Shown: positions 45,797 to 62,023 of the stretch, piece by piece
How the letters are laid out: each line of letters opens with the position of its first letter
Position numbering within the stretch: position 1 is the stretch's first letter
Source: Gemmatimonadota bacterium
GTDB lineage: Bacteria > Gemmatimonadota > Gemmatimonadetes > Gemmatimonadales > Gemmatimonadaceae
Length of the DNA stretch: 64,000 nt
Direction: 5' to 3'
NCBI GenBank assembly: GCA_026387895.1
Contig: JAPLKT010000147.1
Span: forward strand, 14,625 to 78,624
The notes under the pieces: generated by a model
The model's input: only the letters and a program-made list of their open reading frames with translations
The model's database searches: none
What the model was told of the DNA's origin: nothing
Made by a program: the position numbers and the translations under genes

Positions 45797-47427
45797 TGCT
45801 CGGCATTCTCAGCGCGTTCTTCCTTCTCATTGCGGCGGGCACCCCGCGTCCGGCCGACACGTATCCACGCCAGCCGGTCGACGTCGAGCACTATCGTTTC
45901 GCGCTGACTCTCTCAGACAGCACCGATCGCATCGTCGGCGAGGCCACCGTGCGCATGCGGCTGCTCGCCGCTGACATTCGGTCGGTGACGCTCGACCTTG
46001 CCGACGCGAGTGCCGCCAAGACAGGTCGAGGCATGCGGGTAAGCGCGGTAACGCGCGGCGGCGCGGCGCTCGTCTTTTCGCACAGCGCGGACCGGCTCGC
46101 CATTACGCTCGATCATCCGTCCACCGCTGGCGAGGTCATCGAACTCGTGGTGCGCTATGCAGGCATCGCCGCGGACGGGCTGCAGATCAAGCCGAACAAG
46201 TACGGCGACCGGACGTTCTACTCGGATGACTGGCCCAACAAGGCGCATCAGTGGCTACCCACCATTGACCACATTGCGGACAAGGCAACGATGGAGATGG
46301 ATGTGGTGGCGCCCGCGCACTATCAGGTGATTTCGAACGGGCGTCGTGTGGAGCAGACGGATTTGCCGGGCGGCACGCGTCGCACGGTGTGGCGTGAGTC
46401 GGTGCCCATCGCCCCGTGGCTCTACGTGTTAGGCGTCGCCCGATTCGCCGTGCAAACGGTCGGAGACTACGCGGGAGCCCCGATTGAGACGTGGGTATAC
46501 GCGCAGGATCGCGATGCCGGTTTCTTCGACTTTGCCGTGCCGTCCCGCGACGTTTTGGCGTTCTATAGTGAGCGCATTGGGCCGTTCGCATATGAGAAAC
46601 TCGCCAACGTCCAATCCAATGTTGGCGGCGGCGGTATGGAGGCAGCGTCCGCCATCATGTACGGCGCCAACAGTGTCACCGGCACGCGCACCGTGCGGTG
46701 GCGCAACGTGGTGATTCACGAGATTGCGCATCAGTGGTTTGGCAACGCGGTGACCGAGAGCGATTGGAACGACGTCTGGCTGAGCGAGGGTTTCGCGACG
46801 TACTTCACGCTGCTCTTCATTGAACACGCCTATGGCCGAGAGGAGTTTGCGTCGGGGCTCCGCGACTCGCGAAAGACGGTGCTCGATTTCTACGCCAAGA
46901 CACCGGACTACCGCGTGGTGCACGAGAACCTGGCGGATATGGCGCAGGTGAGCAACGGGATGACGTACCAGAAAGGCAGCTGGGTGCTGCACATGCTGCG
47001 TCAGCGCATGGGGGACGATCGGTTCTGGGCGGGCATTCGCGACTACTACGCACGATACCGTAACGCGAACGCCTCGACGAACGACTTCAGGCTCGCGATG
47101 GAACGCGCGTCGGGTCTGGAGCTGTCCGCGTTCTTCAAACAGTGGCTGTATCGTGGCGGCATTCCGCGCATCGAGGGCACGTGGCAGTGGGACGCGACCG
47201 CCAAGCAGGTGGTGGTGGAACTCACACAGACGCAGCCCGGCGAGCCATTCGTACTGCCGGTGGACGTTGGCATCACGCTCACCGACGGCAAGGTGCGCGT
47301 GGAGCGAGCCGACCTCGCGGGGCATGCGGCGCGGTTCAGCTTCGCGTGCGAGCAGGAGCCATCGAGCGTTGCACTCGACCCGAATGTGCGATTGCTGTTC
47401 GAAGGGCGGCTGGCGCGCCGACCGTAG
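45796..47427 (+). CDS. M1 family metallopeptidase (aminopeptidase N-like)
   Basis: 'VIHEIAHQWFGNAV' (HExxH) followed by 'WLSEGFATY'. ATG 45796 shares one nt with the upstream TAA 45794-45796. Confidence 0.85.
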   Translation: MLGILSAFFLLIAAGTPRPADTYPRQPVDVEHYRFALTLSDSTDRIVGEATVRMRLLAADIRSVTLDLADASAAKTGRGMRVSAVTRGGAALVFSHSADRLAITLDHPSTAGEVIELVVRYAGIAADGLQIKPNKYGDRTFYSDDWPNKAHQWLPTIDHIADKATMEMDVVAPAHYQVISNGRRVEQTDLPGGTRRTVWRESVPIAPWLYVLGVARFAVQTVGDYAGAPIETWVYAQDRDAGFFDFAVPSRDVLAFYSERIGPFAYEKLANVQSNVGGGGMEAASAIMYGANSVTGTRTVRWRNVVIHEIAHQWFGNAVTESDWNDVWLSEGFATYFTLLFIEHAYGREEFASGLRDSRKTVLDFYAKTPDYRVVHENLADMAQVSNGMTYQKGSWVLHMLRQRMGDDRFWAGIRDYYARYRNANASTNDFRLAMERASGLELSAFFKQWLYRGGIPRIEGTWQWDATAKQVVVELTQTQPGEPFVLPVDVGITLTDGKVRVERADLAGHAARFSFACEQEPSSVALDPNVRLLFEGRLARRP

Positions 47428-47477
47428 CGTGGTGCTGTCCAGCTCTCGGCGCGTTACGATTTCGTCGCCGGAACACG

Positions 47478-48110
47478 CTAGGTCGACTGGCGCGGCGTGA
47501 GGCGCTCGGCCAAATCAGGGAAGAGGATCTGCGGCAGTGACAGCCGCGACCTGGATGCGCCGGCGAAACCGGTTGCCCGCTCAAAGCGCTCAATCGTCGT
47601 CAGGGCCGTCGCCATCGACTCCTTGCGCGTCGCCTCGAACTCGACGCAGCGGACGGCACGCGACGAGGTCGAGGCCTCGTAGTACACGACTTCGCAGTCG
47701 GCAAAGTACCACACCTCTAGGTCCTTGTGCAGCGTGCCGCTCCAGAGGACACCGAGCCGATCCATGAAGGCGTCGACCTGCGCATCCTGGTTGCCCGCGT
47801 GCTGTCCGAGATCGAGGTTGACCTCGACCCGAACCTCGGTGTCGGCTTCGAGCGCCTTGATCGTCAGGTGATGGAGCTCGGCATCGTAGCGATGCCGCAT
47901 CAGGAACCGGCGGGCGCTGCCACCCTCGGTCAGGAAGTAGCGGTCGCGCACGCGAATCACGCCACTCCTGGTCGGACCCAGCGCGTTGACCAGCTGCCGA
48001 AAGCGCGGCACATCGAACTGGTCATCGACGATGTACTTGTGCTCGATCTCCTTGAATCGCAACTCGTCTGTCGACACCAGGGCTCCTTTGCCATCGGTGA
48101 GGGAACTCAC
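47478..48110 (-). CDS. CYTH (triphosphate tunnel metalloenzyme) domain protein
   Basis: N-terminal 'FKEIEHKY' (ExExK) and alternating charged beta-strand pattern ('RVRDRYF', 'LMRHRYD', 'LTIKALE', 'RVEVNLDL'). Start set to GTG 48108-48110, overlapping TGA 48107-48109. Confidence 0.7.
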   Translation of the reverse strand: MSSLTDGKGALVSTDELRFKEIEHKYIVDDQFDVPRFRQLVNALGPTRSGVIRVRDRYFLTEGGSARRFLMRHRYDAELHHLTIKALEADTEVRVEVNLDLGQHAGNQDAQVDAFMDRLGVLWSGTLHKDLEVWYFADCEVVYYEASTSSRAVRCVEFEATRKESMATALTTIERFERATGFAGASRSRLSLPQILFPDLAERLTPRQST

Positions 48111-49258
48111 ATCCACCGCTTGAACCAGCCGAGCAGCCAGCGCCTGGCCTTCAGCCGCGCGGGCAGGTCGTCGAGAGTCTGCCGAGTCACCAGCCCGTTG
48201 TCCGGATGCTGGCCGAGCTCGGCGAAGATGGCCGCTGCGGGCTGCGTCGCACGGACATCGCGGCTGACCAGCATGGCCTCGGCCAGCCGATCGTGGGCCG
48301 CGTGCTCGAAGTTGTAACTCCCGAACGCCACCCACTCGTCGTCGATCAGCACGATCTTCGAGTGCTCGCCGCGGCGGTTCTCATAGATGCGCACGCCCGC
48401 ATCCAACAGGCGATGGTAGTGCGCGGCCGCCGCGATCCAGGCCAGGTCCGTGGCCGGCAACGCGTCGCGATGCGAGTGATGCACCTCGACTCGCACTCCC
48501 CGGCGCGCGGCATCGACCAACGCCGTCAGCAGGAGCTCAACTGGCTTGAAATAGAAACTGGTGATCCGGACCGATCGCCGCGCGGCGCGAATCCGATCGG
48601 CGAGGCCGTCGGTCACCAGGTTGCGGCCGCGCCAGCCCAGGGGGCCGAACCGCCCCTGTTCGGTGTTCGGGTTGCACAGCCAGTATTCGAGCGCGAGATC
48701 CGCGACGCCGGTCGCCGCGACTTCATCCAACTGACGGAGATGTGACTCGTGCACCGAGCCGCCGATGTCGCGGTAGCTTTCGAGCAGCGTCCGCACCACC
48801 GGGCCACGCACCGCGACAGCGTACTCGTTCCAGCCATCGAACGACGACCGCGTCAGGTTGCTGCTGGCGAAGATCGCCTCACCCGTTTCCGATACCTGGA
48901 TTTTGACGTGCTGGCCGCCGCCGAGCCACCGCTGCAGCCATCGCCCAGGTTGGTAGGTCGTCACCACGCCGCCTGCGCGGCGCAGCTCATCCAGCATTGC
49001 GGCCAAGGCCGCCTTGTGCTCGCCGGACATCACCAGGCCACCCAGGCGCTGGCCGAATCCGTCGATCAGCAGATTCACCGCCACGCCGCGGCGCTGGGCC
49101 GCCACCAGTTCCGTCAGCATCCCGACGCCGTACCAGTCATGCTCGATGTAGAAGGTCGACAGATAGAGGAATGACCGTGCCTCCCTGACCATCGCGAGCC
49201 GGCGCTCCCATTCAGCGGCGCGGTTCCAGAGCGGCAAGAACGCAGAAGCGCTGGTCAT
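48107..49258 (-). CDS. Phospholipase D superfamily protein with two HKD motifs (cardiolipin/phosphatidyl-transferase-like)
   Basis: 'HVKIQVSETGEAIFASSN' and 'HSKIVLIDDEWVAFGSYN'. Confidence 0.8.
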   Translation of the reverse strand: MTSASAFLPLWNRAAEWERRLAMVREARSFLYLSTFYIEHDWYGVGMLTELVAAQRRGVAVNLLIDGFGQRLGGLVMSGEHKAALAAMLDELRRAGGVVTTYQPGRWLQRWLGGGQHVKIQVSETGEAIFASSNLTRSSFDGWNEYAVAVRGPVVRTLLESYRDIGGSVHESHLRQLDEVAATGVADLALEYWLCNPNTEQGRFGPLGWRGRNLVTDGLADRIRAARRSVRITSFYFKPVELLLTALVDAARRGVRVEVHHSHRDALPATDLAWIAAAAHYHRLLDAGVRIYENRRGEHSKIVLIDDEWVAFGSYNFEHAAHDRLAEAMLVSRDVRATQPAAAIFAELGQHPDNGLVTRQTLDDLPARLKARRWLLGWFKRWM

Positions 49259-49264
49259 CGACCG

Positions 49265-49996
49265 CTACAGCCTGTAGCCACCGGCCACGTCGATGTTGGC
49301 GCCGGTCACATAGGCGGCATCGAGCAGATATGCCACCGCCTGGGCAACCTCGTCCAGCGCGCCTGCCCGTCCGAGCGGCACCGTGCGTCCGATTTCATCG
49401 GGTGGCGGCAGATCGACAGAGTTGTCGAGCTGACCGGGCGACACCATGTTGACCCGGATGTTGCGCTCCGCGTACGCCGCCGCCAGCGACCGTGTCAGCG
49501 CGAGGAGTCCGATCTTGCTGACGAAGTAATCGGCGCCGAGCACGTTGGCGCGAGCGCCCTCAAGGCCGGCCATCCCGATGTTGATGATGTTGCCGCTTGA
49601 CGGCATCAGCCGAAGCGCATGGAAGCAGCAGTAGTACGCGCCGGAGAGGTTGGCGGCGAGCGTGGCATCCCACACCGCCGGGTCGAGATTGGTGATGTGC
49701 TGCGGGTTATAGTTGCCGACATTGTTCACCAGTAGATCGACACGACCTTCCCGCTGTGCGATCTCCGCGAAGACCTCGGCCACCTGGGTCTCGACACCCA
49801 CATCCACCACTCGGGCCCGGGCCTGCCGGCCACTGGCAATGATCTGCCGCTCCAGCTCGCGCGCAGCGTCCGCAGAATTGCGGTACAGAATCACCAGGTC
49901 GTAACCACGCGCGGCGAGCGCCGTGCACAAATGTCGGCCGAGTCGGATGGCGCCGCCGGTGACAACGGCAATCGGGGCGGACCGGGGGTGGCTCAC
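49265..49996 (-). CDS. Short-chain dehydrogenase/reductase, FolM/PTR1-like (putative pteridine reductase)
   Basis: 'VVTGGAIRLG' (TGx3RxG variant), 'NNVG', catalytic 'YFVSK'. Start set to GTG 49994-49996, overlapping TGA 49993-49995. Confidence 0.7.
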   Translation of the reverse strand: MSHPRSAPIAVVTGGAIRLGRHLCTALAARGYDLVILYRNSADAARELERQIIASGRQARARVVDVGVETQVAEVFAEIAQREGRVDLLVNNVGNYNPQHITNLDPAVWDATLAANLSGAYYCCFHALRLMPSSGNIINIGMAGLEGARANVLGADYFVSKIGLLALTRSLAAAYAERNIRVNMVSPGQLDNSVDLPPPDEIGRTVPLGRAGALDEVAQAVAYLLDAAYVTGANIDVAGGYRL

Positions 49997-50352
49997 GGCC
50001 GGACGCGCTCCACCCGAACGAAGGAGCACGCGGCGGCCGGGACGGCGGCCGGCTTGCGAATCTCGAGCCGAACCCGTCGCACCTGGGGAAACCGGGCGAG
50101 CAACATCGCCGCGGTCTCTTCGGCCATGGTCTCGATCAGTTGAAACGCCCTGTGGTGGGCCAGCTCGGTCACTCCCTTGGCCACGCCGTCGTAGTCGAGG
50201 GCGTCACCAATCGCATCCGAGGCCGCCGCCGCCGCAAAGTCGTAGTCGAGATCGATGTCGATGATCACGGACTGCCGAGCCTCGCGCTCGTGCTGGTAGA
50301 TCCCGACGATGCACTCCACCCGGAGGCCCTGAAGGCCTGTAGTTCCGATCAT
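49993..50352 (-). CDS. Dihydroneopterin aldolase family protein (FolB/FolX-like T-fold)
   Basis: 119 aa: 'LRVECIVGIYQHEREARQSVIIDIDL', 'LDYDGV', 'LIETMAEE', 'EIRKPAA'. ATG 50350-50352 is preceded by GGAGGAG on the minus strand. Confidence 0.75.
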   Translation of the reverse strand: MIGTTGLQGLRVECIVGIYQHEREARQSVIIDIDLDYDFAAAAASDAIGDALDYDGVAKGVTELAHHRAFQLIETMAEETAAMLLARFPQVRRVRLEIRKPAAVPAAACSFVRVERVRP

Positions 50353-50369
50353 AACGGGGTTCTCCTCCT

Positions 50370-51152
50370 CTACTCGGGTCGGCGAGCGATCCAGACCTGC
50401 TCGCGCGCGGTGTTGTTCGCGAACGGCGTGCGCGCGAAATCTCCGAAGCAAGATTCAATCACGAAGCCGGCTTCCTGGAGCAGGGTCCGTGCCTGCGACG
50501 GTTCGAGCCAGCTGAGGCTCAGCCGGCGGTACTGCCGCCGGACCAGCACGCCCTCGGCGTCGAGTGTATCCTCCCACGTCACGACCCTGATCGACTGCGA
50601 GGCCTCATCCACTAGGGACGTGACCCACAACAGGGTCTCCGCGCCTGCCGCGGTTCGGTACGCGGCGCGCAGTTGCACACGCCGCATGTGGTCGATGAGG
50701 GCCGGCGTCATCAGGAAATCGTCAAAGACGAAACGACCGCCGGGCTGGAGCTGGGAGAAGATGTGGGCGATGGCGCCGCGCTTGTCGTCGAGCGTCGGCA
50801 GGTGGCCGAGGCTGTGATAAGGCAAGGCGACGAGTCCGGCGGGCTGGTCGAGCTTGAAGTGCCGGAAGTCGGCGTGTTGCAGCGTCAGCTGCTCAAGGAC
50901 GCCGGCGTCCGCCGCGCGGCGGCGGCAGCGTTCGAGCATGGCGGCAGACAGATCAATGCCAATGACGGCTCGTCCCCGGGCTGCCGCCGGCACGGCAATG
51001 CGGCCATCGCCGACGCCAAGCTCCACGACCGGACCGGCCGCTTGCAGGTACGCGTCCACGTAGAACGCCAGGTTGGCGCGCGTGGAGGCGGCGGTATCGG
51101 TCCACACCGCGTAGATGTCGGCAAAACTGTCGTACTCGCTTGTCGGGAGCAT
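50370..51152 (-). CDS. Class I SAM-dependent methyltransferase
   Basis: 'VVELGVGDGRIAV', 'IGIDLSAAML', 'LQPGGRFVFD'. ATG 51150-51152 chosen because the upstream part of the track ORF is Arg/Pro-rich. Confidence 0.7.
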   Translation of the reverse strand: MLPTSEYDSFADIYAVWTDTAASTRANLAFYVDAYLQAAGPVVELGVGDGRIAVPAAARGRAVIGIDLSAAMLERCRRRAADAGVLEQLTLQHADFRHFKLDQPAGLVALPYHSLGHLPTLDDKRGAIAHIFSQLQPGGRFVFDDFLMTPALIDHMRRVQLRAAYRTAAGAETLLWVTSLVDEASQSIRVVTWEDTLDAEGVLVRRQYRRLSLSWLEPSQARTLLQEAGFVIESCFGDFARTPFANNTAREQVWIARRPE

Positions 51153-51662
51153 CGGGCTAACCGAGCTTGACGATCGTGGCGGCCTCACGGGCACCAACCG
51201 CGGCCACCGCCAGTACTTTGCGGTTCCACGAGTCTCGGCGCGCGCTGCCGGCAAGGGCGAGATACGGTTGCAGTGGTCATGTACCACCGATCTTAGCGCA
51301 CGTCGCTTCCGCGCTTTTTTGTGCAAAACGACCTATTCCACGGTTGAATGACACAAGACTCTGTCGGGATAGGAAATTCAATCGGGGTGGGTCGGCGAAC
51401 CTTGGAACGTACCGCGCGATCGTCGTCCGCGCTAGCGCAGCAGAACGGGCGGCGGCGTGCCGGCTGACTCGAGCGCGCGCCTCGTGTTGGAGCGCCCGCT
51501 GCAGAAGCTGGCGTTAGGCCGACGCCGCGCACATGCATGGCTACGCAGCTAAGTGCTGGTAGTTACGTTCTCGTGATCGAACGCGCCTTGCGAGCGAGTC
51601 GCCCCATGCAAGACCGGATCGGTTTGGCGGCGACATCCTGATCAAGCGGAGGGAAGAAAACG

Positions 51663-51851
51663 ATGAACAACACACTGCTAGGATTCGGAATCGTATTTCT
51701 TGTCGGCGCGGTGCTGATGGTGTTTGGCTTGACGCCGACCGAGCTTACCGTGTCGGATTTGTCAGTCTTGGTCTTCTTCTTTCCGGGGGTCGTTGCGCTT
51801 GTCGCGCATCTGGAGATCGCAAGACTTAGGAAGCAGGCTGGAAAACCCTGA
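51663..51851 (+). CDS. Small hypothetical two-TM membrane protein (62 aa)
   Basis: GGAGGG at 51648-51653, 9 nt before ATG 51663. Two hydrophobic helices ('LLGFGIVFLVGAVLMVFGL', 'LSVLVFFFPGVVALVAHL'). It lies in a gene-poor segment. Confidence 0.4.
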   Translation: MNNTLLGFGIVFLVGAVLMVFGLTPTELTVSDLSVLVFFFPGVVALVAHLEIARLRKQAGKP

Positions 51852-52192
51852 CAAGGTTGAAGCCATCCTCGTCCCGAACTCCGCGTTCCATCAGGCGTGG
51901 GCTGTGCTGACCGGTGGGCGAACACCAATCGCTGTCCCGGACCGAGTGTCGGTATCTCTGCTTACACGGACGCAACCGTTGGCGCGCCCGCGGCATAACC
52001 AGCGCTTGCTGCCGACGAGCCTGGTCGCGGGGCGTCGGGGGGGGCCGTCCTCACGCGAAGGTCGTGGTGTCTCGCGCGGCGTGCAGCGCCTCGCCATACT
52101 TCCATAACCCCGATTGCATGTCCTATCCCGGGAGCGCATTGACGTTTAGAGGTGCGGGTGCCGCTGCGACGCCGCTGACCTAGGGAATCTCG

Positions 52193-55100
52193 ATGACCGA
52201 CGAAATTGCGTTCAAGTCTGATGCTGCTCTCCTGGATCTGACCTTTGCACGGGCAGCACTCAGTCAGCACTGGGGTATCGATGCCCAGCTCACAGTGCTG
52301 CCGGGCGAGTACGACCAGAATTTCATGGTCGCCGTAGCGGGCGTGCGCACCCATGTACTGAAGATCATGCGCCCGGATTGCACCGAGACTTTCGTCGACT
52401 TGCAGTGCCGCGTATTGCGACATGTCGCAAAAATTGATCCTGCGGTGCCAGTGCCTGGAGTGGTCGCGAGTCGAGAAGGCGCTGACTACGTGCGCCTCGT
52501 CGCCCCAGATGGGGCTGTTCGTTTGGTCTGGCTGATTACCGTATTGCCAGGGCATGTCTATGCGCGCGAGCGACCCAAGACCGTGACGCTCGCGCAAGCG
52601 GTGGGTGTGGCGCATGGTCGGTTGGGTCTGGCGTTGGCTGATTTCACGCACGTCGCCTTAGCGCGCCCGACCAAGTGGGATCTGGAAGTGGCAGACTGGA
52701 TCTGCGCACATCCCGATGCGATTCCGGAACCGTCACGGCGCCAGTTGGTGGATGCCATCGCGGCGCGCTTCGTCGATGACCTCAAGGAACGCCTGGCGGC
52801 TTTGCCGCATGCGGCAATCCACAACGATCTGAACGATCACAACTTTCTGGTCGAGGCGACTGGCGATTCGGTCCGGGTTTCCGGGCTACTCGACTTTGGT
52901 GACCTCATCTCGGGTGCGCGTGTCGCGGACTTGGCTATCGCGGCGGCGTATATCGTTTTGGATCAGCCGCGACCGCTCGAGACGCTGGAGACGCTCGAGA
53001 CGCTGGAGACGCTGGCCGCGTATGTCGCCGGAGTGCATGCAGTGGCCCCGCTCAGTGAGGAAGAACTGGCGCTACTCTGGCCACTGCTGCTCACACGGCT
53101 TGCCGTTAGCGTCACCAATAGTGGGCTGGGTAAACTGGCACGGCCGGAGGATCCGTACGTCGTCGTGTCTGAACGCAGTGCGTGGGCGTTTCTCGAGGCG
53201 ATGGGGGCTTACCCAGAGGACTACGTGCACGCGCGCCTGCGTCTCGCCTGTGGACTTGCGGCGCACCCGTCGGGGGAGGCTGTTGCTGCGCATATCGCCG
53301 CGGTACCGGCAGCGGCGGTCTTGGCGGTCCGTTTGGTGGAGGCGCCCGTACTGGACCTGTCGATTGGCGGCGCCGGTTCTCCGGATGACCCACAGCGCTT
53401 CGATATAGCGGCATTGGAGCGTCACATTGACACTGTGGCGCGCGACGGTGTCGCGCTGGGTCGCTATGCGGAACCGCGCCTGATCTATACCGCACCCGCC
53501 TTCGTCACCGAGACGTGCACCGGTCGCGAGCGGCGCACCGTGCACCTTGGGCTGGACGTGTTCGTCCCTGCGGGCAGCGTGGTCTGTGCGCCATACGACG
53601 GCACCATTTTTGATATCGCCATTCGATCGGATGATCTCGACTATGGCGGCGTGATCGTGCTTGAGCACCGGACCGCTGGTGACGTACCGTTTTACACGCT
53701 GTATGGACACCTTGCGCACACCGTAGGCTTGCATCAACAGCTCGGCAGTCGCGTGGCGGCAGGCGACCCCATCGGTAATGTCGGTGCGGCCGATGAGAAC
53801 GGTGGCTGGCCGCCCCATCTGCACCTGCAGTTGGGTTTGACGACCCTGGACCGGGGGAGTGATTGGCCGGGAGTGGCCGCGCCGGATGAGTTGGCGACTT
53901 GGCTTGCGCTGTACCCAAATCCAGCAGCGTTGCTCGGCGTTGATGCGCAGCACGTGGATGGGCGGCCTGTGGCTGAATCGGCACGGATCGATCGGCGTCG
54001 ACACCGTTTTAGCCGCAACCTCAAGACGTCCTACCAGCAACCGATCACTGCCGTGCGAGGGATTCGCCATCACTTGTACGATGTATGGGGCCGAGAGTAC
54101 ATCGATGCGTATAACAATGTCCCACAGGTCGGGCATTGTCATCCGCGTATTTTGCGCCGCATGGCCGAACAGGCGCGGCTGTTGCAGACCAACACCCGTT
54201 ACCTGCAGGACGTGCATTTAGCCTACGGCGATGCCCTTGCCGCGCATTTTCCGGCGCCATTAGAAGTGTGTTTCTTTGTCAACTCTGGCTCCGAGGCGAA
54301 TGAACTGGCGATTCGCTTGGCGCGCGCTTATACCGGCGTGCGCGATACCGTGGTGCTTGAGGAGGGGTACCACGGCAATACCAATACAGCGGTCGCATTG
54401 AGTCATTACAAATTTGCCGGACGTGGCGGCACGGGTCAGGAGTCTTGGGTCCATGTTGCGCCGCTGCCGGATCCTTATCGCGGCCGATATCGCGGGCCGA
54501 ACTCGGGTGCGGACTACGCCGCACAGGTCGGCGTCATCCTCGACCATCTTGCAGCTGCCGGGCGACGACCGGCCGCATTTATTGCAGAGACCTTGCCCTC
54601 GGTGGGTGGGCAGATCGTGCCGCCGAGTGGTTATCTGGCCGACGTCTATGCCCGTATCCGCGCGGCGGGGGGGCTGTGTATAGCCGATGAGGTGCAGACG
54701 GGCTTTGGTCGACTCGGGGACTGGTTCTTCGGCTTTGAAGGGCAGGGCGTGGTACCCGATATTGTGGTGCTGGGCAAGCCGATGGGTAATGGACATCCGA
54801 TCGGTGCGGTGGTCACCACGCGTGCGATTGCCGATGCATTTGCCAATGGGATGGAATTTTTCAGCACCTTCGGAGGCTCATCGGTCGCCTGCGCCGTGGG
54901 TAGCGAAGTGCTCTCCATCGTCGCCGACGAAGGGCTGATGGCCCATGCCAAGCGCACGGGCGACCAACTCCTGCATGGATTGCGATCGCTCGCGCAGACC
55001 TATCCGTTGATCGGGGATGTGCGCGGTCATGGGCTTTTTCTCGGCGTCGAATTCGTCAATGACCGCGACGCGCGCCATCCTGCGACCGTGCAGACGGCGT

Positions 55101-55273
55101 ATCTGGTCGAACGGCTACGCGAGCAGCGCATCCTCGTGGGGACTGAGGGTCATGACAACAACATCATCAAAGTGCGCCCGCCGCTGACTTTTGACGCTAC
55201 CGCGGTTGACCGTATTCTGGCAGCGCTGTCGACTGCACTGGCAGAGCGGCCTGCGCAACCCACAGGCATTTGA
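52193..55273 (+). CDS. Tri-domain protein: APH-type kinase + M23 peptidase-like domain + class-III aminotransferase-fold (PLP) domain
   Basis: Kinase: '[14 protein letters not shown]' and 'LLDFGDL'. M23: 'VHLGLDV', 'LYGHL', 'PPHLHLQL'. PLP domain: '[17 protein letters not shown]', '[12 protein letters not shown]', '[16 protein letters not shown]'. 1026 codons without a stop. Confidence 0.85.
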
Positions 55274-55359
55274 GCTAGACCGCCGCATGCGCCCTCGCAG
55301 CTGATACGCAGGTCGTGAGGCTTTCAGTAAAACCAAACATCAATCATTCACAGGGAACT

Positions 55360-55947
55360 ATGCATTCATCGTTACAACTCAATCACTTTTTCGTAAAAGA
55401 ACACGTCGGGCTGTTCAAAGCATCAAACAACTACGACATCTTCGATCCGACCACACAACAGAAAATACTTGAGTGCAGAGAGCCCAACCTCGGCATCTTT
55501 GCGAAGCTGTTTCGCTTCACCGATTACAAGCGCATGACGCCCTTCAACATCGAAATTCGAACCCCAGAAGGCGCAAAGGTTCTTTCCATGAAGCGGGGCA
55601 TTTCGCTCTTCGTCTCGAACGTTGACGTTCTGGACGAGAACGACAGAGTCGTCGGTCATTTCAAGCAAAAGTTTTTCTCGATTGGGGGCAAGTTTGACGT
55701 CCTCGATTCAGAAGACAACCCCGTCTGTACGCTACAGGGAAAGTGGACAAGCTGGGACTTTCGCTTTTTGCAAGACAACACTGAACTCGCCAGTGTCTCC
55801 AAAAAGTGGGCAGGCCTCGGAAAAGAGCTGTTCACCACCGCCGATAACTACATGCTGTCAATCAACAGCACCGTTGGCGCTTCAGACGGTAGTCGAATGC
55901 TCATCGTTGCCGCAGTAATGTGCATTGACATGGTGCTGAAAGAGTAA
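55360..55947 (+). CDS. Phospholipid scramblase (PLSCR) family protein
   Basis: 'VSKKWAGLGKELFTTADNYMLSI' and the C-terminal hydrophobic tail 'RMLIVAAVMCIDMVLKE' parallel the eukaryotic PLSCR 'SKxWSGxxxExFTDADNFGI ... FLIDFMFFE'. ATG at 55360. Markedly lower GC than the flanks. Confidence 0.7.
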   Translation: MHSSLQLNHFFVKEHVGLFKASNNYDIFDPTTQQKILECREPNLGIFAKLFRFTDYKRMTPFNIEIRTPEGAKVLSMKRGISLFVSNVDVLDENDRVVGHFKQKFFSIGGKFDVLDSEDNPVCTLQGKWTSWDFRFLQDNTELASVSKKWAGLGKELFTTADNYMLSINSTVGASDGSRMLIVAAVMCIDMVLKE

Positions 55948-55991
55948 CGCAGTCGCCAAACGCCTGTACACGCTGTAGGGCCAGCCGCGAC

Positions 55992-56591
55992 TCAGGACGC
56001 CAGCGCGCGCTCGATCGCCGCACGCAATGACGTGTCATTGGGCGCAATCGGTCCCGTTTTTCTCCACACCAGAATCCCCTGCTTGTCGATAAGAAAGGTG
56101 GCCGGTACGCCGAGCGTGAGGAACAACGACGAGATCCGCTCGTCGGGATCGCGCCAGATGGGGAACGTCATCTGAAATTCGCGCATGAACCCGCGAATGG
56201 CGTCGTCGGTACCGTCCGTATCGACACTCACGCCCACCAGTTCCAATCCTTTCGCACGATATCGCGCATGCAGTTGACGCAGCTCTGGGATTTCCGTGCG
56301 ACAGGGATGACACCAGGTGGCCCAGATGTTGAGCAGCACAACCTTGCCACGCTCTCCCGCCAGCGACACGGAATCACCGTCCAGCGACACCGTGGCATAC
56401 GCGGGAGCTGGTAGGCCGATTTCGACGCGACCATCATTCGCTGGAGCGCCATCGGTGCGTGTGCCGCAACTGCTCAGCGTGATGCTATTCACGAGTGCCA
56501 GCGCGAGGCCCAGCGCGTACCGCTTGGACTCTCTCCTGGTTTTCCCTGTACTTCCGACGGCCGACCCTCGACTGCCCACTGCGTGGGTCAC
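55992..56591 (-). CDS. TlpA/ResA-like thiol-disulfide oxidoreductase lipoprotein
   Basis: Lipobox 'LSSCG' and thioredoxin motif 'WATWCHPCRTEIPEL'. GTG 56589-56591 overlaps TGA 56588-56590. Confidence 0.85.
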   Translation of the reverse strand: MTHAVGSRGSAVGSTGKTRRESKRYALGLALALVNSITLSSCGTRTDGAPANDGRVEIGLPAPAYATVSLDGDSVSLAGERGKVVLLNIWATWCHPCRTEIPELRQLHARYRAKGLELVGVSVDTDGTDDAIRGFMREFQMTFPIWRDPDERISSLFLTLGVPATFLIDKQGILVWRKTGPIAPNDTSLRAAIERALAS

Positions 56592-57975: not shown

Positions 57976-60900
57976 CTAGTCGGAGTCCTTCCAGGCGCGC
58001 TTCCACGCGTCCAGGATTGGCTTGAAGCGGCGCGTGGCGTCAGCGCCCCACCAGCTTGTCATGTCGGTCGAATCCGTGTTGTTCGCACCCCGCTTGAAGC
58101 GGAAGTGGATGGTGCGGGCCGTGCCGTCAATCAGCGTCGCGGTGAAGAGGCGGCAGGTGCCTGCCCAGCTTCGCTGTGTGGTCCAGTTCACGTGGTAGTA
58201 TCCACGGCGCGCGTCGTAGCGTCCGTAATCGTCGCTCACGTCTTCGTCGTCATCGGTGAACGAACCGCGCGAGTGGTCGTCCCACTTTTTGCCACTGCCG
58301 TTCCACGGATGGTCGAGAAGCGTGGGCACAGCGCACACTTCTTGCACCGAGGTGAACGACTGGACCACCGTGGTGCCAGCCGTCACGCCGGACGCCACCG
58401 AATATCGAAGCGGAATCTCGCGCCCTGCCTCGATCACATTCACGCGCCCCATATCGATTGGGGAGAGGAAGCCGGTGAACACCAGCGAGGAGGTGCCGGC
58501 GAACGAAACCGTGGACGATGTTATGCTCGACGCGCCCGACAGGCTAAAGACGAGCGTGTAGCTGCCGGTCCCGTTCAACGCCAAGTTGGTAAAGGTGGCG
58601 CGCCCTGCGGTTGCAGTCACAGGGTTGATGCCCGTGAGCGTGCCGGCCGTGCCACTCCCGATCGAGGCGGTCACAGCGCCAGTTCCGGTGGCGACCGCGA
58701 GCCCAGCGGCATCCCGCAGTTCGACCACAGGCTGGACCGTCAGGGTGCTGGCGAGACGCGGCGTTCCGGGCTGCGTCACCAGCGCCAACTGACGGACCAC
58801 CTGGGTCACCGTAACGGCACTGCTTGTCATTGAACTCAGACCAGACGACGCGAACTGCACCCGCACCGTTCCGGCCGTCGACCCGACACGCAGGTTGGTG
58901 AAGGTTGCCACACCATTTACGCTGGTCGCGCTGGTGGTGCCCTGCAACACGCCGGAGCTCCCGCTCGCAATCGTCGCACTGACGGTCACGGCTGCGTTCG
59001 ACACGAGTACGCCGTTCACGTCCCGAATCTCAACGCGGAACGGTGTCGACATCGCCGCGCCGCTCTCGACGGTGGTTGGCGCGGAGGTAATCGCGACCTG
59101 CGTAGCCGTAGAGCCCGGATTCGTTCCGCCACCCGTTGTGGTGAGCAGCAACGTGAGCGGTGTGGTGGTGCCGCCGGCGCTGAACGAGACCGTGAACAAC
59201 CCAATCGTATTCAGCGAGAGATCGGTAAACGTTGCGACGCCGTTGACGACCGGTACAGTGGTCGTGCCGCTCAGCGACGTTGGCGAGCTGGCCACCGAGG
59301 CCGTCACCGTTCCGCTCGTCATTGGCTGTCCCGCGTTGTCGAGCACGCGGATCGACGGCTGCGGGCTCCATACAACGTTGAGGCTCGCCGAGGTCGGCTG
59401 CGTTACAAACGATGCCGTGGCGGCGGTTTGTGTGATCGCGATCGAAAGCGGGACACCCGCGAACTGCGAAGCTGACACCGTCAGGGTCACCGGCGTGGCC
59501 GGCGTGCTGCTGGTGATGCGCAACCCAGCAAAGGTCGCGACACCATTCACTGCATTCACCGTCGTCGTTCCGGTGACGGTTCCGTTTGTAGCCGAGACAG
59601 TGACCGGCGCGGTAGACGAGCTGGCCTTCGCGCCGGTGGCATCAGCCACGCGCACCGCGAAGGTGCTCAGCGTTCCGCCATTCACCACACTGGTTGGCGG
59701 CACGTCGACCAGCAGCTGCGTACCCGTCGACACCACAAAGATCCCGGCGGTTACGGCGCCACTGCTCAGCGCGATCGTGTAGGAGCCGAGGCTCGTGGCG
59801 ACACCGAGGTTGGTGAAGGTTGCAACGCCATTCACAGAGGTCGCGCTCAGCGTTCCGGTGAGTGTACCGCCCGCTGGACCGTCAACGATGCTGGCGGTGA
59901 CCACATTCCCGCTGTTCGCCATGCGCAATCCGGCGGCATCGAGCAGCTCGACACTTGGCTGCGGCGCGAGCGTAGCGCCCAACGACGTCAGCCCCGGGGC
60001 AGTAAGCAAGTTCATGTGACGCACGACCTGCGTGACCGTGATCGGTATTGTCACGATATCGACAACTTCGGTGGAACTGAACACGAGCGTCGTGCCGGTG
60101 CTCGCGCCCGCGAGAATCAAGTTGGTGAACGTCGCGCGGCCGCTGTCGGCGCTGACTGTCGTCGTGCCAAGTAATGCGCCACTGCCGCTGTAGAGCTGCG
60201 CGGTGACATTGTTGTAGCTGCGGGCACGAACACCGGCTGCCGTAATCAGGTCGAAGGTTGCCGTGAATGGCACGCCAGATTCGACAGCCGTTGGCACACT
60301 GACCGCGCGGAGTACGATCGGCTTCGGATGGCAGATCGAGGACGTTGATGCCGTCAGCGCAACGAGTTCGTCTTTGGTCAGCGCGCGATTGAAGATCGCT
60401 GGCTCATCGATGATGCCATTGAACGCGTACTTGTCCGGGCCGAGGTTCGGAGAGGTGATGCGCGAACCGATGTGGACTGGACCCGACGTGAGCGGCGTGA
60501 TGTCGCCAACATAGGCACTGTCCTCCACGAAGCCGTTCGACCAGATCTTTTCATAGCCCGTCGCACGATCGTACGTCACGGCAACATAGGTCCAGGTCTG
60601 GAGCGGCACGACATTCTGTTGCATCACGATATGCCACGTGCCGTTCACATCGATCAGGTTCGCGAACTCGGCCATCCTGGGATCCATCCATTGGTGATGG
60701 CTCCAGAGGTGCGCCCCATTCCAGAACTCAAGAATTGGGCCGGACCCCTTGGCGGGATCGTTTGGGAGAGAGCTGAACCAATCGCCACGTGTGTTGACCC
60801 ACGCGGCCATCGTCATGCCCAACCCAGGACCAACATCAAGCACCGCGTCAGACGCGGTCACAATGTCGGCAGTGAGATCGTTGAAGCTGAACCCTGTGCC

Positions 60901-61185
60901 GATGCGCCCTGGCACGAAGGTCACGTTCCCTGTGATCTGACCCAAGCGACTGGCGACAGAATCCACCGCACTCCCTTCTCCACCCCAGCACGAGATCAAG
61001 CCTGCCGGGGTTGCCCGATTGTCGAGCGACGCGACGAGCGAACTCCGACCGACCAGTGTGGCGAGGCGGGGCGCGACCCCACGAGACGCACTCGACGCGC
61101 GAGGTCCCGTGACGTCCGCGAGCTTGCTGCACGCCGCGACCACGAGCAACGTGGCGAGTATTGACTTGAGGATACGACGGTTCAT
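57976..61185 (-). CDS. Large surface/secreted lipoprotein: LamG/concanavalin-like domain + six tandem Ig-like modules + PxKF-like C-terminal domain
   Basis: Lipobox 'VVAACS'. LamG-like 'MTMAAWVN ... WTYVAVTYD ... IDEPAIFNRALT'. The 'ATF(T/A)xL' motif recurs at aa 351, 455, 550, 651, 760 and 862. C-terminal 'FTGFLSPIDMGRVNVIEAGREIPLRYSV'. Confidence 0.75.
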   Translation of the reverse strand: MNRRILKSILATLLVVAACSKLADVTGPRASSASRGVAPRLATLVGRSSLVASLDNRATPAGLISCWGGEGSAVDSVASRLGQITGNVTFVPGRIGTGFSFNDLTADIVTASDAVLDVGPGLGMTMAAWVNTRGDWFSSLPNDPAKGSGPILEFWNGAHLWSHHQWMDPRMAEFANLIDVNGTWHIVMQQNVVPLQTWTYVAVTYDRATGYEKIWSNGFVEDSAYVGDITPLTSGPVHIGSRITSPNLGPDKYAFNGIIDEPAIFNRALTKDELVALTASTSSICHPKPIVLRAVSVPTAVESGVPFTATFDLITAAGVRARSYNNVTAQLYSGSGALLGTTTVSADSGRATFTNLILAGASTGTTLVFSSTEVVDIVTIPITVTQVVRHMNLLTAPGLTSLGATLAPQPSVELLDAAGLRMANSGNVVTASIVDGPAGGTLTGTLSATSVNGVATFTNLGVATSLGSYTIALSSGAVTAGIFVVSTGTQLLVDVPPTSVVNGGTLSTFAVRVADATGAKASSSTAPVTVSATNGTVTGTTTVNAVNGVATFAGLRITSSTPATPVTLTVSASQFAGVPLSIAITQTAATASFVTQPTSASLNVVWSPQPSIRVLDNAGQPMTSGTVTASVASSPTSLSGTTTVPVVNGVATFTDLSLNTIGLFTVSFSAGGTTTPLTLLLTTTGGGTNPGSTATQVAITSAPTTVESGAAMSTPFRVEIRDVNGVLVSNAAVTVSATIASGSSGVLQGTTSATSVNGVATFTNLRVGSTAGTVRVQFASSGLSSMTSSAVTVTQVVRQLALVTQPGTPRLASTLTVQPVVELRDAAGLAVATGTGAVTASIGSGTAGTLTGINPVTATAGRATFTNLALNGTGSYTLVFSLSGASSITSSTVSFAGTSSLVFTGFLSPIDMGRVNVIEAGREIPLRYSVASGVTAGTTVVQSFTSVQEVCAVPTLLDHPWNGSGKKWDDHSRGSFTDDDEDVSDDYGRYDARRGYYHVNWTTQRSWAGTCRLFTATLIDGTARTIHFRFKRGANNTDSTDMTSWWGADATRRFKPILDAWKRAWKDSD
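58501..60318 (-). repeat. Six ~100-aa tandem Ig-like coding repeats inside the surface protein gene
   Basis: Periodic 'T(L/V)xGTxxxxxVNGVATFTNL' blocks roughly every 100 residues. The repeats are diverged at the nucleotide level. Confidence 0.7.
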
Positions 61186-61506
61186 AGAAAAGCTGCCATG
61201 TCATGAGGAACAGCAGATCGCGGACCCTGCGTGCGGTCGCGATCGCTTGTGTGTCAAATGGATTCCAACGCACCAACTATCAATAACTACGACAGTGTAT
61301 ATCTTCTTGATAATAATAACTACAAGCTTGTCATATTTGCAATAGGATTCAGCAGAAGCTTGTCTGATCTCCACGCCGGTGAGCATCGGCACATGGCACC
61401 CGTTTATAAACCGGTACCCAGGGGTCGACGATGCCAGAGAGGCCGGTCGCGGGAGCGATCGGCCTCTAAAGTAACTGCTTTAAATCTACTGAATGGTTAC
61501 TATTAC

Positions 61507-61538
61507 AAAAGCCTGTGCTTCTGTGGTTTTACACAGGC
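61507..61538 (-). terminator. Possible intrinsic terminator of the DinB-family gene
   Basis: On the minus strand, GCCTGTG (61538-61532) pairs with CACAGGC (61517-61511) around a 14-nt loop that contains the TAA stop. TTTT (61510-61507) follows. Confidence 0.45.
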
Positions 61539-62023
61539 CTCGAACGCATAACCTTCTTCAGCATAGCGATTTGCGCCATGTGGTAGATATCGTGATCGAT
61601 CAGTCCTGCGACTGTTTGCGCTCGTGTCATGCTGGATCCACCCTCTCCGGACACCGATTTTGGGACCTGTAGGAACAGCTCTTCCTCGTGCGCCTTCTCC
61701 AATGCGGCGAGTAGGGCATATCGGGCAGCCTTGAGTGACTCTAGAGTGGCCGCCCAGGCGGCATCATTGGTTTCGGCCACGGTTGGCCAGTCGCCGCGCG
61801 TGGGAACTGGTCCGCCGCCACCGGTGAGGCGGGCGGCGACCTCTTCAGTCCACGCCAACTGGTGGAGTGTCCCCTCCCAAATGGTCTGCGCGCCGGGAAT
61901 CACGCGCGTGGCCGCTTCAGCAGCCGTGACATCTGCGAGAATCGCCTTGCTCGACTTCCCGTGCCAGGGCTCGCCGGCCCACACCACCATCATCCGTTCC
62001 CGCAACGTTACGCGCAGACTCAT
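61529..62023 (-). CDS. DinB superfamily protein
   Basis: About 160 aa, four-helix pattern with conserved His positions ('WEGTLHQLAWTEE', 'IDHDIYHMAQI'). Confidence 0.6.
   Translation of the reverse strand: MSLRVTLRERMMVVWAGEPWHGKSSKAILADVTAAEAATRVIPGAQTIWEGTLHQLAWTEEVAARLTGGGGPVPTRGDWPTVAETNDAAWAATLESLKAARYALLAALEKAHEEELFLQVPKSVSGEGGSSMTRAQTVAGLIDHDIYHMAQIAMLKKVMRSRPV

Follow-up and report, generated by a model that had tools for sequence, protein, structure and literature searches.

A conserved operon joining FolB- and pteridine reductase-type proteins to phospholipase D-family and CYTH proteins in Vicinamibacterales, a possible pterin branch outside folate synthesis

In a 64,000-nucleotide stretch of DNA (the window), we found five minus-strand genes packed closely together. 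In the order of transcription, they encode a class I SAM-dependent methyltransferase (MT; 50370..51152, 260 aa), which is the first gene of the unit in the window, a FolB-type dihydroneopterin aldolase/epimerase with a T-fold (49993..50352, 119 aa), an SDR with the pteridine-reductase motif TGx3RxG (49265..49996, 243 aa), a ClsB-like phospholipase-D-superfamily protein with two HKD motifs (PLD; 48107..49258, 383 aa), and a CYTH protein or triphosphate tunnel metalloenzyme (TTM; 47478..48077, 199 aa). The tight packing described in the earlier note was borne out when coordinates and junctions were re-read from the sequence, all junctions being overlaps or spacers of at most 29 nt. The MT stop codon TAG (50370-50372) is followed by 17 nt (50353..50369) that include the ribosome-binding site AGGAGGAG and then by the FolB start codon ATG (50350-50352). 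The FolB TGA and the SDR GTG overlap in GTGA at 49993-49996, and 6 nt separate the SDR stop codon TAG from the ATG of the PLD gene. Upstream of the MT gene, on the same strand, lies a 36-codon remnant of an NADPH-dependent FMN reductase gene (51163..51261), where residues 7-42 of the FMN_red protein of locus L085 match the window at 61 % identity in tblastn.

Regarding the last junction, the CYTH gene had been thought to start at a GTG overlapping the PLD stop codon TGA. This codon (48108-48110) does exist and would yield a product of 210 aa, but a later GTG at 48075-48077 is preferred. It is preceded by AAGGAG 5 nt upstream, orthologues have their ATG start at the aligned position (MSTD.., MSLD..), and it yields the 199-aa product that the gene caller gives on an identical contig. 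Judging from the ribosome-binding site and the orthologue starts, the CYTH gene most likely begins at this GTG, which would separate it from the PLD gene by a spacer of 29 nt.

The five family assignments held in Pfam and NCBIfam profile searches, with the CYTH protein borderline in Pfam and backed by its predicted fold. The FolB-like protein scored 108 bits with Pfam FolB and passed the TIGR00525 folB equivalog model (83.7 against a cut-off of 72.15). Its PDB matches were FolB of Vibrio (68 bits), FolB of E. coli (60.8) and FolX (35.6), and the catalytic E, Y, E and K of FolB align in the protein and are conserved in 76 orthologues. It had been described as FolB/FolX-like; the FolB part stands, but FolX identity was rejected because the FolX model failed (56.5 against a cut-off of 152) while the folB model was passed, and because E. 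coli FolB outscores FolX.

The SDR matched adh_short_C2 in Pfam (155 bits). Its best NCBIfam model was the TmpR dihydropteridine/dihydrofolate reductase, annotated as bifunctional (181.6 bits, under the cut-off of 325), and it scored 129 with the pteridine reductase model PRK09135. Conservation across 79 orthologues includes the stretches TGGAIRLG and YFVSK, and TGx3RxG is invariant. The arginine of this motif is treated as specific to pteridine reductases (PMC1971073, PMC13259868), and its presence together with the best NCBIfam model supported the reading of the motif proposed earlier. Compared with reference sequences entered by hand, the SDR shares 33 % identity with PTR1 of L. major, 34 % with FabG and 23 % with FolM of E. 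coli, so overall it is no nearer to PTR1 than to FabG and is distant from E. coli FolM. The protein seems to lack the catalytic-triad Asp/Ser (IGMAG).

The PLD protein contains two PLDc_2 domains (120 bits, Pfam), and its top NCBIfam model was ClsB with 98 bits, far under the cut-off of 281. Its AlphaFold model (pLDDT 81.5) matches PLD 7e0m, vaccinia F13, PssA, PLD3, Streptomyces PLD and PPK1. Both HKD motifs are invariant in orthologues, and the C-terminus forms a conserved basic-aromatic tail, FKRWM. We found no transmembrane segment in this protein, its peak hydropathy being under the transmembrane range, and no clear amphipathic segment. The CYTH protein scored 23.6 bits in Pfam against a cut-off of 23.2 and had no sequence match in NCBIfam or the PDB, solved TTMs included. 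However, the fold of its AlphaFold model (pLDDT 86.8) is that of triphosphate tunnel metalloenzymes, with TM-scores of 0.85 for PH1012 and 0.79 for SaTTM. The EIEHK motif and the tunnel Arg/Glu residues are invariant in orthologues. The subfamily is small, with 199 clusters at 50 % identity.

The MT matched Methyltransf_25 (58 bits), Methyltransf_11 and Methyltransf_31 in Pfam, and its top NCBIfam model was the daptide N-methyltransferase (92 bits, under the cut-off of 175). The top PDB match was 9SOT (CorZ, 105 bits), a free-amine N-terminal methyltransferase (PMC12951456), followed by MtfA, YunM, CcbJ and CypM. Phospholipid N-methyltransferases scored only 19-26 bits, compared to 92-105 bits for small-molecule/peptide amine methyltransferases. 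Judged by its closest relatives, the MT resembles free-amine N-methyltransferases and not O-methyltransferases, so the suggested analogy with methylated monapterin (2'-O-methylmonapterin) is not favoured.

Gene-order conservation in relatives had been set beforehand as a test of the unit. MT-FolB-SDR-PLD-CYTH is the gene order found in 61 of the 80 species-level genomes, nearly all from Vicinamibacterales, and it recurs in about 66 of 80 metagenome loci. The unit is kept together in about 80 species of this acidobacterial order of soil and freshwater. As the genes flanking the operon vary between genomes, the shared order is not due to chance. Order and short junctions persist down to about 60 % protein identity. 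The arrangement is restricted to one order and was not inherited across Acidobacteriota. FolB is present in 74/76 loci, the SDR in 78/80, CYTH in 72/78 and the MT in 68 of the 74 loci with room for one. In nearly every locus the SDR gene is translationally coupled to that of FolB (median gap about -3 nt), and PLD directly follows both in 78 of the 80 genomes. The cited motifs (TGGa.RlG, Y..VSK, both HKD motifs and EiEHK) are conserved across 67-83 orthologues. While the order of the five-gene unit proved to be conserved, the MT is not a fixed member; it is missing from six of the 74 loci and from a whole sister clade, in which lgt and a pseudouridine synthase gene precede the four-gene core on the same strand. 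The core is thus FolB-SDR-PLD-CYTH, with the MT and an upstream FMN reductase as accessory genes. The latter (Pfam FMN_red, 133 bits) precedes the MT in the closest relatives and is intact in L003, L005-L007, L009, L011, L018, L019, L083 and L085. Rare genomes carry PLD alone (L071) or PLD and CYTH without FolB-SDR (L057).

The placement of CYTH at a pterin-triphosphate step gained independent support from gene context. GTP cyclohydrolase I adjoins the operon itself in one locus (L078). In other lineages, the CYTH subfamily also forms a single ORF with PTPS, followed by FolE (L087), overlaps QueD/PTPS by 4 nt beside FolE and a queuosine-precursor transporter (L089, L090), is separated from FolE by one hypothetical gene (L095, L097, L098), follows a FolB::cupin-like protein (L147), or adjoins Vut_1 (L175). 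These fusions and neighbours, namely QueD/PTPS, GTP cyclohydrolase I and a FolB-domain protein, tie the subfamily to dihydroneopterin triphosphate. Members were found also in non-pterin contexts (pyruvate kinase-CYTH-YqeY, or beside an amylase), and the protein may act more generally on inorganic triphosphate. In triphosphates, TTMs attack the gamma-phosphate (PMC8233210), and NeuTTM, E. coli YgiF and SaTTM prefer inorganic triphosphate (PMC3440374, PMC8233210).

The joining of two pterin enzymes to a PLD, a triphosphatase and an MT points to undescribed processing of a GTP-derived pterin precursor, and we found no earlier description of such an operon in the literature. From family membership and gene context we infer, with about even confidence, that the operon is self-contained and encodes a non-folate pterin branch specific to Vicinamibacterales. 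This branch would start at 7,8-dihydroneopterin triphosphate (DHNTP), which GTP cyclohydrolase I makes, and end in a reduced pterin. FolB releases no triphosphate itself. The CYTH tunnel enzyme would hydrolyse the triphosphate, either that of the pterin or inorganic triphosphate derived from it. The ClsB-like enzyme could then cleave or transfer the remaining phosphoester, which is the weakest step of the scheme; HKD enzymes are phosphodiesterases or phosphotransferases and not monoesterases, so plain dephosphorylation by PLD would be chemically awkward. Once dephosphorylated, the dihydropterin would have its trihydroxypropyl side chain epimerised or cleaved by the FolB-type enzyme, and the PTR1/FolM-type SDR would reduce the 7,8-dihydropterin to the tetrahydro form. 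In most members the amine-type N-methyltransferase would then methylate the product, and one sub-clade adds the FMN reductase. Points against this reading are the overall identities of the SDR and its apparent lack of triad residues, the non-pterin contexts of the CYTH subfamily, and the rare genomes with an incomplete unit. If true, the operon would bring new phosphate-handling enzymes to pterin metabolism. The earlier note held that triphosphate removal has no dedicated enzyme, which agrees with a 2026 review of the monapterin branch, where the phosphatase is still unidentified (PMC13259868), but not with the folate branch, where the Nudix enzyme FolQ is known (PMC1971073).

A housekeeping folate route, of which the operon would cover the first pterin reactions in Vicinamibacterales, seems an unlikely alternative. 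In place of the Nudix enzyme FolQ/NudB and the unspecific phosphatase there would be CYTH, perhaps with PLD; FolB would serve the genome as its dihydroneopterin aldolase, and the SDR would be a FolM/TmpR-type dihydrofolate reductase. Such a route would fit the passed folB model and the proximity to bona fide aldolases, the bifunctional annotation of the top SDR model, and the position of the sister-clade core genes behind housekeeping genes; moreover, most genomes lack FolQ, and its replacement by non-orthologous enzymes is expected (PMC1971073). However, none of about 170 loci had folK, folP, folC or folA at a distance of up to 10 kb, nor were homologues of folK, folP, folA or nudB found in 2.0 Mb of fetched loci. 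The restriction to one order also speaks against it, the MT, FMN reductase and HKD enzyme would be of no use in folate synthesis, and enzymes of the FolM type are not regarded as primary folate reductases (PMC1971073).

We consider it still less probable that the operon is centred on lipids, with PLD making or remodelling an ordinary phospholipid of the membrane such as cardiolipin or swapping a head group, the MT modifying a head-group amine, and the pterin genes being merely co-transcribed or providing a lipid enzyme, encoded outside the operon, with reduced pterin as its cofactor. Cardiolipin synthases are the nearest characterised relatives of PLD, its fold also resembles phosphatidylserine synthase, synthases of the PLD type accept primary alcohols promiscuously (PMC8141893), and PLD stands alone in L071. 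Nevertheless, the ClsB cut-off is widely missed, PLD lacks a transmembrane or clear amphipathic segment and sits directly behind FolB-SDR, and the MT scores poorly with phospholipid enzymes. A mobile or defence cassette, or lineage-specific co-transcription of genes with no shared pathway, is very improbable. In its favour, the flanks differ, the L071 orthologue of PLD lies on a contig of different GC content, and PADLOC gave weak DrmC-like PLD matches, but these hits are generic PLD and MT matches, there is no integrase, transposase or defence partner, order and junctions are retained in divergent relatives, and two genes are pterin enzymes with CYTH linked to pterin genes in other lineages.

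The proposed pterin branch can be compared with several known systems. Common to the operon CYTH and the inorganic triphosphatases NeuTTM, YgiF and SaTTM are ExExK, a tunnel fold of eight strands, and basic as well as acidic residues in the tunnel; the operon protein differs in lacking a sequence-level match to a solved TTM and in its neighbours (PLD/FolB/SDR, QueD/PTPS and FolE). Like the phosphatidyltransferases ClsB and PssA, the operon PLD is bilobed, with both HKD motifs intact, and like ClsB, annotated examples of which it matches at 28-30 % identity over about 90 % of its length (tblastn), it is soluble and without N-terminal membrane helices. Unlike them, it falls below the ClsB equivalog cut-off, lies in a pterin operon and carries the FKRWM tail.

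The tetrahydromonapterin branch uses FolX and FolM in E. coli and Pseudomonas and PruA in Agrobacterium, and methylated monapterin is known (PMC13259868, PMC4488946, PMC1971073). It shares with the proposed route the DHNTP start and the pairing of a T-fold enzyme of the FolB family with an SDR carrying TGx3RxG. However, the operon has a FolB-type and not a FolX-type enzyme, its SDR shares only 23 % identity with FolM of E. coli, and it unites in a single operon CYTH, HKD enzyme and amine-type N-methyltransferase, all foreign to that branch. The folate branch (FolE, FolQ/NudB of the Nudix family, an unspecific phosphatase, FolB, FolK and FolP) likewise has a FolB-type aldolase acting after triphosphate removal from DHNTP (PMC1971073). 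In contrast, the operon has no Nudix enzyme and no folK/folP linkage, its SDR is translationally coupled to FolB, and the task of removing phosphate would fall to a TTM and an HKD enzyme. The archaeal route to 6-hydroxymethyl-dihydropterin (MptA, MptB, MptD) passes via dihydroneopterin 2',3'-cyclic phosphate, and has a dedicated phosphodiesterase and a FolB-like aldolase. The families differ fully, with the GTP cyclohydrolase IB-like MptA and the HD-type MptB in place of CYTH and HKD enzymes. A hypothetical cyclic intermediate of this phosphodiester kind, adopted by analogy and followed by the FolB-like aldolase, would give the HKD phosphodiesterase a natural role in the operon pathway.

We propose that the operon MT-FolB-SDR-PLD-CYTH is a lineage-specific branch leading from 7,8-dihydroneopterin triphosphate (DHNTP), the product of GTP cyclohydrolase I (FolE), to a reduced non-folate pterin, and we give this proposal about an even chance of being right. 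Its observed basis is the family membership of the five proteins, the conservation of their motifs, the translational coupling and kept order of the genes, and the genomic contexts in which relatives of the CYTH gene occur.

The ORF table and a direct reading of the sequence place the five genes consecutively on the minus strand: the SAM methyltransferase (MT, 50370-51152), the FolB-like protein (49993-50352), the SDR (49265-49996), the two-HKD PLD protein (48107-49258) and the CYTH protein, the ORF of which ends at 47478 and likely starts at the GTG at 48075-48077 (199 aa). The TAG stop of MT is followed by 17 nt containing AGGAGGAG and then by the ATG of FolB, the stop of FolB and the start of SDR share the bases GTGA, and 6 nt separate the SDR stop from the ATG of PLD. 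The gene order and these three junctions are as described in an earlier note made from the sequence alone, but the 4-nt overlap of PLD and CYTH which it also described has to be revised. The GTG overlapping the PLD stop is present (48108-48110), but the second in-frame GTG at 48075-48077 is better supported: it is preceded by AAGGAG 5 nt upstream, it matches the position of ATG starts in many orthologues in the alignment, and it gives the 199-aa protein that was called on an identical contig. From these signals CYTH more likely starts at the second GTG, and the PLD-CYTH junction is most likely a 29-nt spacer.

Both neighbours of the operon are located on the opposite strand, an M1 peptidase convergently and a kinase/M23/aminotransferase fusion divergently, so the five genes form a self-contained unit. 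The fusion (52193-55273, plus strand) has 1026 aa with APH-type kinase, Peptidase_M23 and class-III aminotransferase parts and carries a (Leu-Glu-Thr)x4 repeat in a linker; it is followed by a Scramblase-family gene (55315-55947, plus strand), also divergent from the operon. The GC content dips to 0.57 at 54001-56000 and to 0.59 at 60001-62000, compared with about 0.64 in the window background. Scanned against Rfam at E<=1, the stretch 47000-52400 yielded no riboswitch or other RNA family, and a scan for promoters and terminators gave no signal above the shuffled background.

The earlier note had suggested checking whether the gene neighbourhood is conserved, which turned out to be the case. 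When one genome from each species was scanned with a PLD alignment, 129 relatives came up, and the best 80 of them, almost all labelled Vicinamibacterales or Acidobacteriota, were searched by tblastn with the five window proteins. The full order MT-FolB-SDR-PLD-CYTH is kept in 61 of these 80 loci, though the flanks vary. The SDR is present in 78 of the 80, FolB in 74 of 76, CYTH in 72 of 78 and MT in 68 of the 74 loci with room for it. The median FolB-SDR gap across the loci is about -3 nt, and conservation of the operon extends to approximately 60% protein identity. Besides an FMN reductase in one sub-clade, the fetched loci revealed no further conserved flanking genes. This NADPH-dependent FMN reductase stands directly upstream of MT, as a sixth gene, in the closest relatives of the window. 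The window itself retains a remnant of 36 codons (51163-51261, minus strand; 61% identical to residues 7-42), and most of the gene has evidently been deleted.

Several loci depart from the full set. The sister clade displays lgt, a pseudouridine synthase and then FolB-SDR-PLD-CYTH, without MT; as a rare exception, one locus (L057) has PLD and CYTH only; and where CYTH is missing, unrelated genes (Stig1-like, amine oxidase and a Pyr_redox/AIRS fusion) take its place. The conserved set and its variants thus define FolB-SDR-PLD-CYTH as the core, with MT and the FMN reductase as accessory genes. In locus L071 (10001-11152, contig GC 54.6%), another rare exception, a lone orthologous PLD, 59% identical, has unrelated neighbours (a 7TMR-DISM/AraC regulator, a lamin-tail-domain protein and BacA), which suggests that either PLD was horizontally transferred on its own or the contig was mis-binned. 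In locus L078 (2614-3192, minus strand) GTP cyclohydrolase I, which makes the precursor, adjoins the operon and is divergent from MT, the only case of such proximity in the 80 genome loci.

Pfam searches confirmed all five family assignments of the earlier note, but not the likeness of the T-fold protein to FolX. The protein scored 108.3 with PF02152 (cut-off 31.8) and passed the folB equivalog model TIGR00525 (83.7 against a cut-off of 72.15), while it stayed below the FolX equivalog NF008418 (56.5 against 152). Among solved structures the best matches are dihydroneopterin aldolases of gammaproteobacteria, with about 60.8-68.3 bits, compared with 35.6 bits for FolX (1b9l). The active-site residues (Glu, Tyr, Glu, Lys) match those of E. 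coli FolB (2o90) at HERE, DY, LIE and RKP and are kept across 76 orthologues. Judged by these similarities, the protein is an aldolase/epimerase-type FolB and not FolX.

Both motifs previously pointed out in the SDR are present and conserved. TGGAIRLG fits the pattern TGX3RXG, in which Arg replaces the usual Gly, and its T, G, R and G are kept in 79 orthologues; the catalytic YX3K motif is YFVSK, conserved in the orthologues as Y..VSK. The Arg of TGX3RXG is treated as specific for pteridine reductases in the literature defining the motif (PMC1971073, PMC13259868). The top NCBIfam model was TmpR, a bifunctional dihydropteridine/dihydrofolate reductase, with 181.6 bits (under the cut-off of 325), followed by FabG (152.8) and PRK09135, a model for pteridine reductase (129), and the best 60 PDB matches were FabG-like. 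Against provisional reference sequences, the identity was 33% to PTR1, 34% to FabG and 23% to E. coli FolM. Overall, the SDR appears no nearer to PTR1 than to FabG and far from E. coli FolM. PTR1 and FolM have an Asp at the position of the catalytic Ser of SDRs. We noticed IGMAG at the classical Ser site of the window protein (residues ~139-146 of the gene at 49265-49996, minus strand), where the alignment to the provisional references is uncertain, and an invariant Asp immediately before the catalytic Tyr. The active site may be differently arranged.

An aldolase-type FolB would also fit a housekeeping folate route, in which CYTH replaces the Nudix enzyme FolQ and the SDR acts as dihydrofolate reductase, and the core genes of the sister clade do have housekeeping neighbours. 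However, tblastn searches for FolK, FolP, FolA and NudB found none of them in the 2.0 Mb of fetched loci, the distribution of the operon is narrow, and its extra genes are without a role in folate synthesis. We therefore regard the folate route as unlikely.

The CYTH protein is borderline in Pfam and has no NCBIfam model, and neither its single sequence nor its profile matched any solved structure. Its AlphaFold model (pLDDT 86.8) was aligned by Foldseek to PH1012 (TM 0.85), SaTTM (0.79) and YpAC-IV (0.76), and the predicted fold is clearly that of an eight-stranded triphosphate tunnel metalloenzyme. EIEHK represents the ExExK motif on the first strand, and R57, R72, R74, K85, E92, R94, E96, E157 and E159 are invariant tunnel residues in the orthologue alignment. 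The earlier assignment based on EIEHK is thus sustained by the conserved motif, the modelled fold and the tunnel residues.

Among 1.84 billion representative proteins, searched exhaustively, only 199 clusters proved to be related to this CYTH. The locus scan was run with a narrower alignment, the wide one being too diverse, and contexts were read for distant members, 41-60% identical; several of these relatives are on contigs below 2 kb with little context. In two fetched loci of another lineage (L089 8001-10143, and L090) CYTH shares 4 nt with a QueD/PTPS-like gene; a queuosine-precursor transporter precedes the pair, and behind it come a small gene and then a bona fide FolE. In three others (L095, L097 and L098) CYTH is followed by the same small gene and then FolE. 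CYTH occurs together with PTPS in L099 and adjoins a gene of the queuosine-precursor transporter family in L175, and in L147 (1711-3096) the gene immediately upstream of it encodes a 252-aa protein that joins an N-terminal FolB domain to a cupin-like C-terminal half. Finally, L087 (7687-8766) contains CYTH and PTPS domains in a single ORF, followed by GTP cyclohydrolase I; as the contig name suggests 1x coverage, this fusion could be an indel artefact.

QueD and PTPS use DHNTP and release inorganic triphosphate. The contexts with QueD/PTPS, FolE, FolB and the transporter place the CYTH subfamily at the node of DHNTP and triphosphate, which supports the part of the earlier note that put CYTH at a pterin-triphosphate step. 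The substrate would be either the pterin triphosphate or free triphosphate, and the gene contexts do not discriminate between the two. Nor is the subfamily exclusively pterin-linked, since in lower-GC lineages (L100 and L127, also L091 and L092) CYTH follows pyruvate kinase and precedes YqeY, with phosphatidylserine decarboxylase nearby, and another member adjoins an amylase. The bacterial CYTH enzymes that have been characterised act specifically on inorganic triphosphate, the physiological source of which was left open (PMC3440374), and tunnel enzymes attack at the gamma-phosphate (PMC8233210).

The PLD protein is a two-HKD member of the PLD superfamily, as the earlier note had it: both motifs (H117-K119...SSN and H299-K301-D306...GSYN) are intact and invariant in orthologues, and the AlphaFold model (pLDDT 81.5) was recognised by Foldseek as a bilobed PLD fold, with probability 1.00 to PLD, PssA, F13 and PLD3. 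As PLD, vaccinia F13, phosphatidylserine synthase, PLD3 and polyphosphate kinase all fit the model to a similar degree, the fold does not reveal the substrate. The closest characterised family is the cardiolipin synthase ClsB, with 28-30% identity over ~90% of the length, and the protein stays below the ClsB equivalog NF008427 (98.4 bits against a cut-off of 281). Neither a transmembrane segment nor a convincing amphipathic helix emerged from hydropathy and hydrophobic-moment tests. The C-terminus of every orthologue is a conserved basic-aromatic tail, G-[R/P]-F-K-R-W-M (48107-48130, minus strand), which is not strongly amphipathic. A search of a plasmid collection returned only ClsB-like PLD relatives and one weak CYTH match. 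A lipid-centred reading of the operon, which has the resemblance to ClsB as the sole point in its favour, seems to us very unlikely. Readings as a defence system (DISARM DrmC etc.) or a random cassette were rejected, as the PADLOC matches were only generic ones for PLD and MT, and no defence-system partner genes were found in the operon flanks.

The MT contains a Rossmann SAM-binding domain (Methyltransf_25, 58.5 bits) with a GxGxG-type motif, ELGVGDGR, conserved in orthologues, in agreement with the class-I methyltransferase recognised before. Its closest relatives are CorZ of myxarylin biosynthesis (105 bits), a daptide methyltransferase (92 bits, below the cut-off of 175), MtfA, CcbJ and CypM. 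CorZ is a free-amine methyltransferase (PMC12951456). By similarity, MT is probably nearest to enzymes methylating free amines, and these relatives do not favour the analogy to O-methylation.

For the branch from DHNTP to a reduced non-folate pterin, we infer the following chemical steps. CYTH would hydrolyse the triphosphate, and the HKD enzyme would handle the phosphoester that remains. The side chain of the dephosphorylated dihydropterin would then be epimerised or cleaved by FolB, the SDR would reduce the product to the tetrahydro form, and, where MT is present, an amine of the product would be methylated. The HKD step is the weakest, because HKD enzymes cleave or transfer phosphodiesters and anhydrides and not monoesters. 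Chemically reasonable tasks for the enzyme would be to open a neopterin 2',3'-cyclic phosphate, to cleave the diphosphate left once the gamma-phosphate is removed, or to act as a transferase, with an alcohol accepting either a phosphatidyl or a pterin-phosphoryl group.

That the HKD enzyme builds a pterin phosphodiester and the CYTH subfamily is a dedicated triphosphatase of the DHNTP node is a long shot. In one version, a phosphatidyl group from a membrane phospholipid would be transferred to the primary hydroxyl of a neopterin, monapterin or 6-hydroxymethyl side chain, giving the phosphatidyl-pterin of the earlier note. Many primary alcohols are substrates of PLD-type cardiolipin synthases (PMC8141893). 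Neopterin, monapterin and 6-hydroxymethylpterin carry such a hydroxyl on the side chain, so by analogy this product is possible, but it is unsupported. In the other version, DHNTP would be the activated donor, as CDP-diacylglycerol is for PssA. If such a conjugation took place, it would yield a compound class of its own, new to pterin chemistry: a conjugated or membrane-anchored, N-methylated reduced pterin. A CYTH subfamily dedicated to the DHNTP node would in addition provide bacterial tunnel triphosphatases with a physiological triphosphate source, which has long been missing.

Taken together, the earlier interpretation is supported in part: the pterin link and the triphosphate role of CYTH gained evidence, and the FolX and O-methylation analogies did not. 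Our literature searches on the gene combination, on CYTH with DHNTP and on TmpR, which were not exhaustive, brought up no prior description. Bacterial pterins beyond folate and molybdopterin are poorly mapped. The Nudix enzyme FolQ is absent from most genomes (PMC1971073), and a 2026 review leaves three features of the monapterin-type signal pterin unassigned, namely its phosphatase, its methylation step and an 'unknown sidechain' (PMC13259868). For those steps the operon supplies concrete candidates that can be cloned, from a soil and freshwater order which is abundant but little cultured, and the coupling of CYTH to QueD/PTPS and FolE suggests a cellular origin of inorganic triphosphate. Compared with the known systems, the operon would represent a pterin branch from DHNTP whose set of partner enzymes is unprecedented, in a bacterial order that is widespread but poorly studied.
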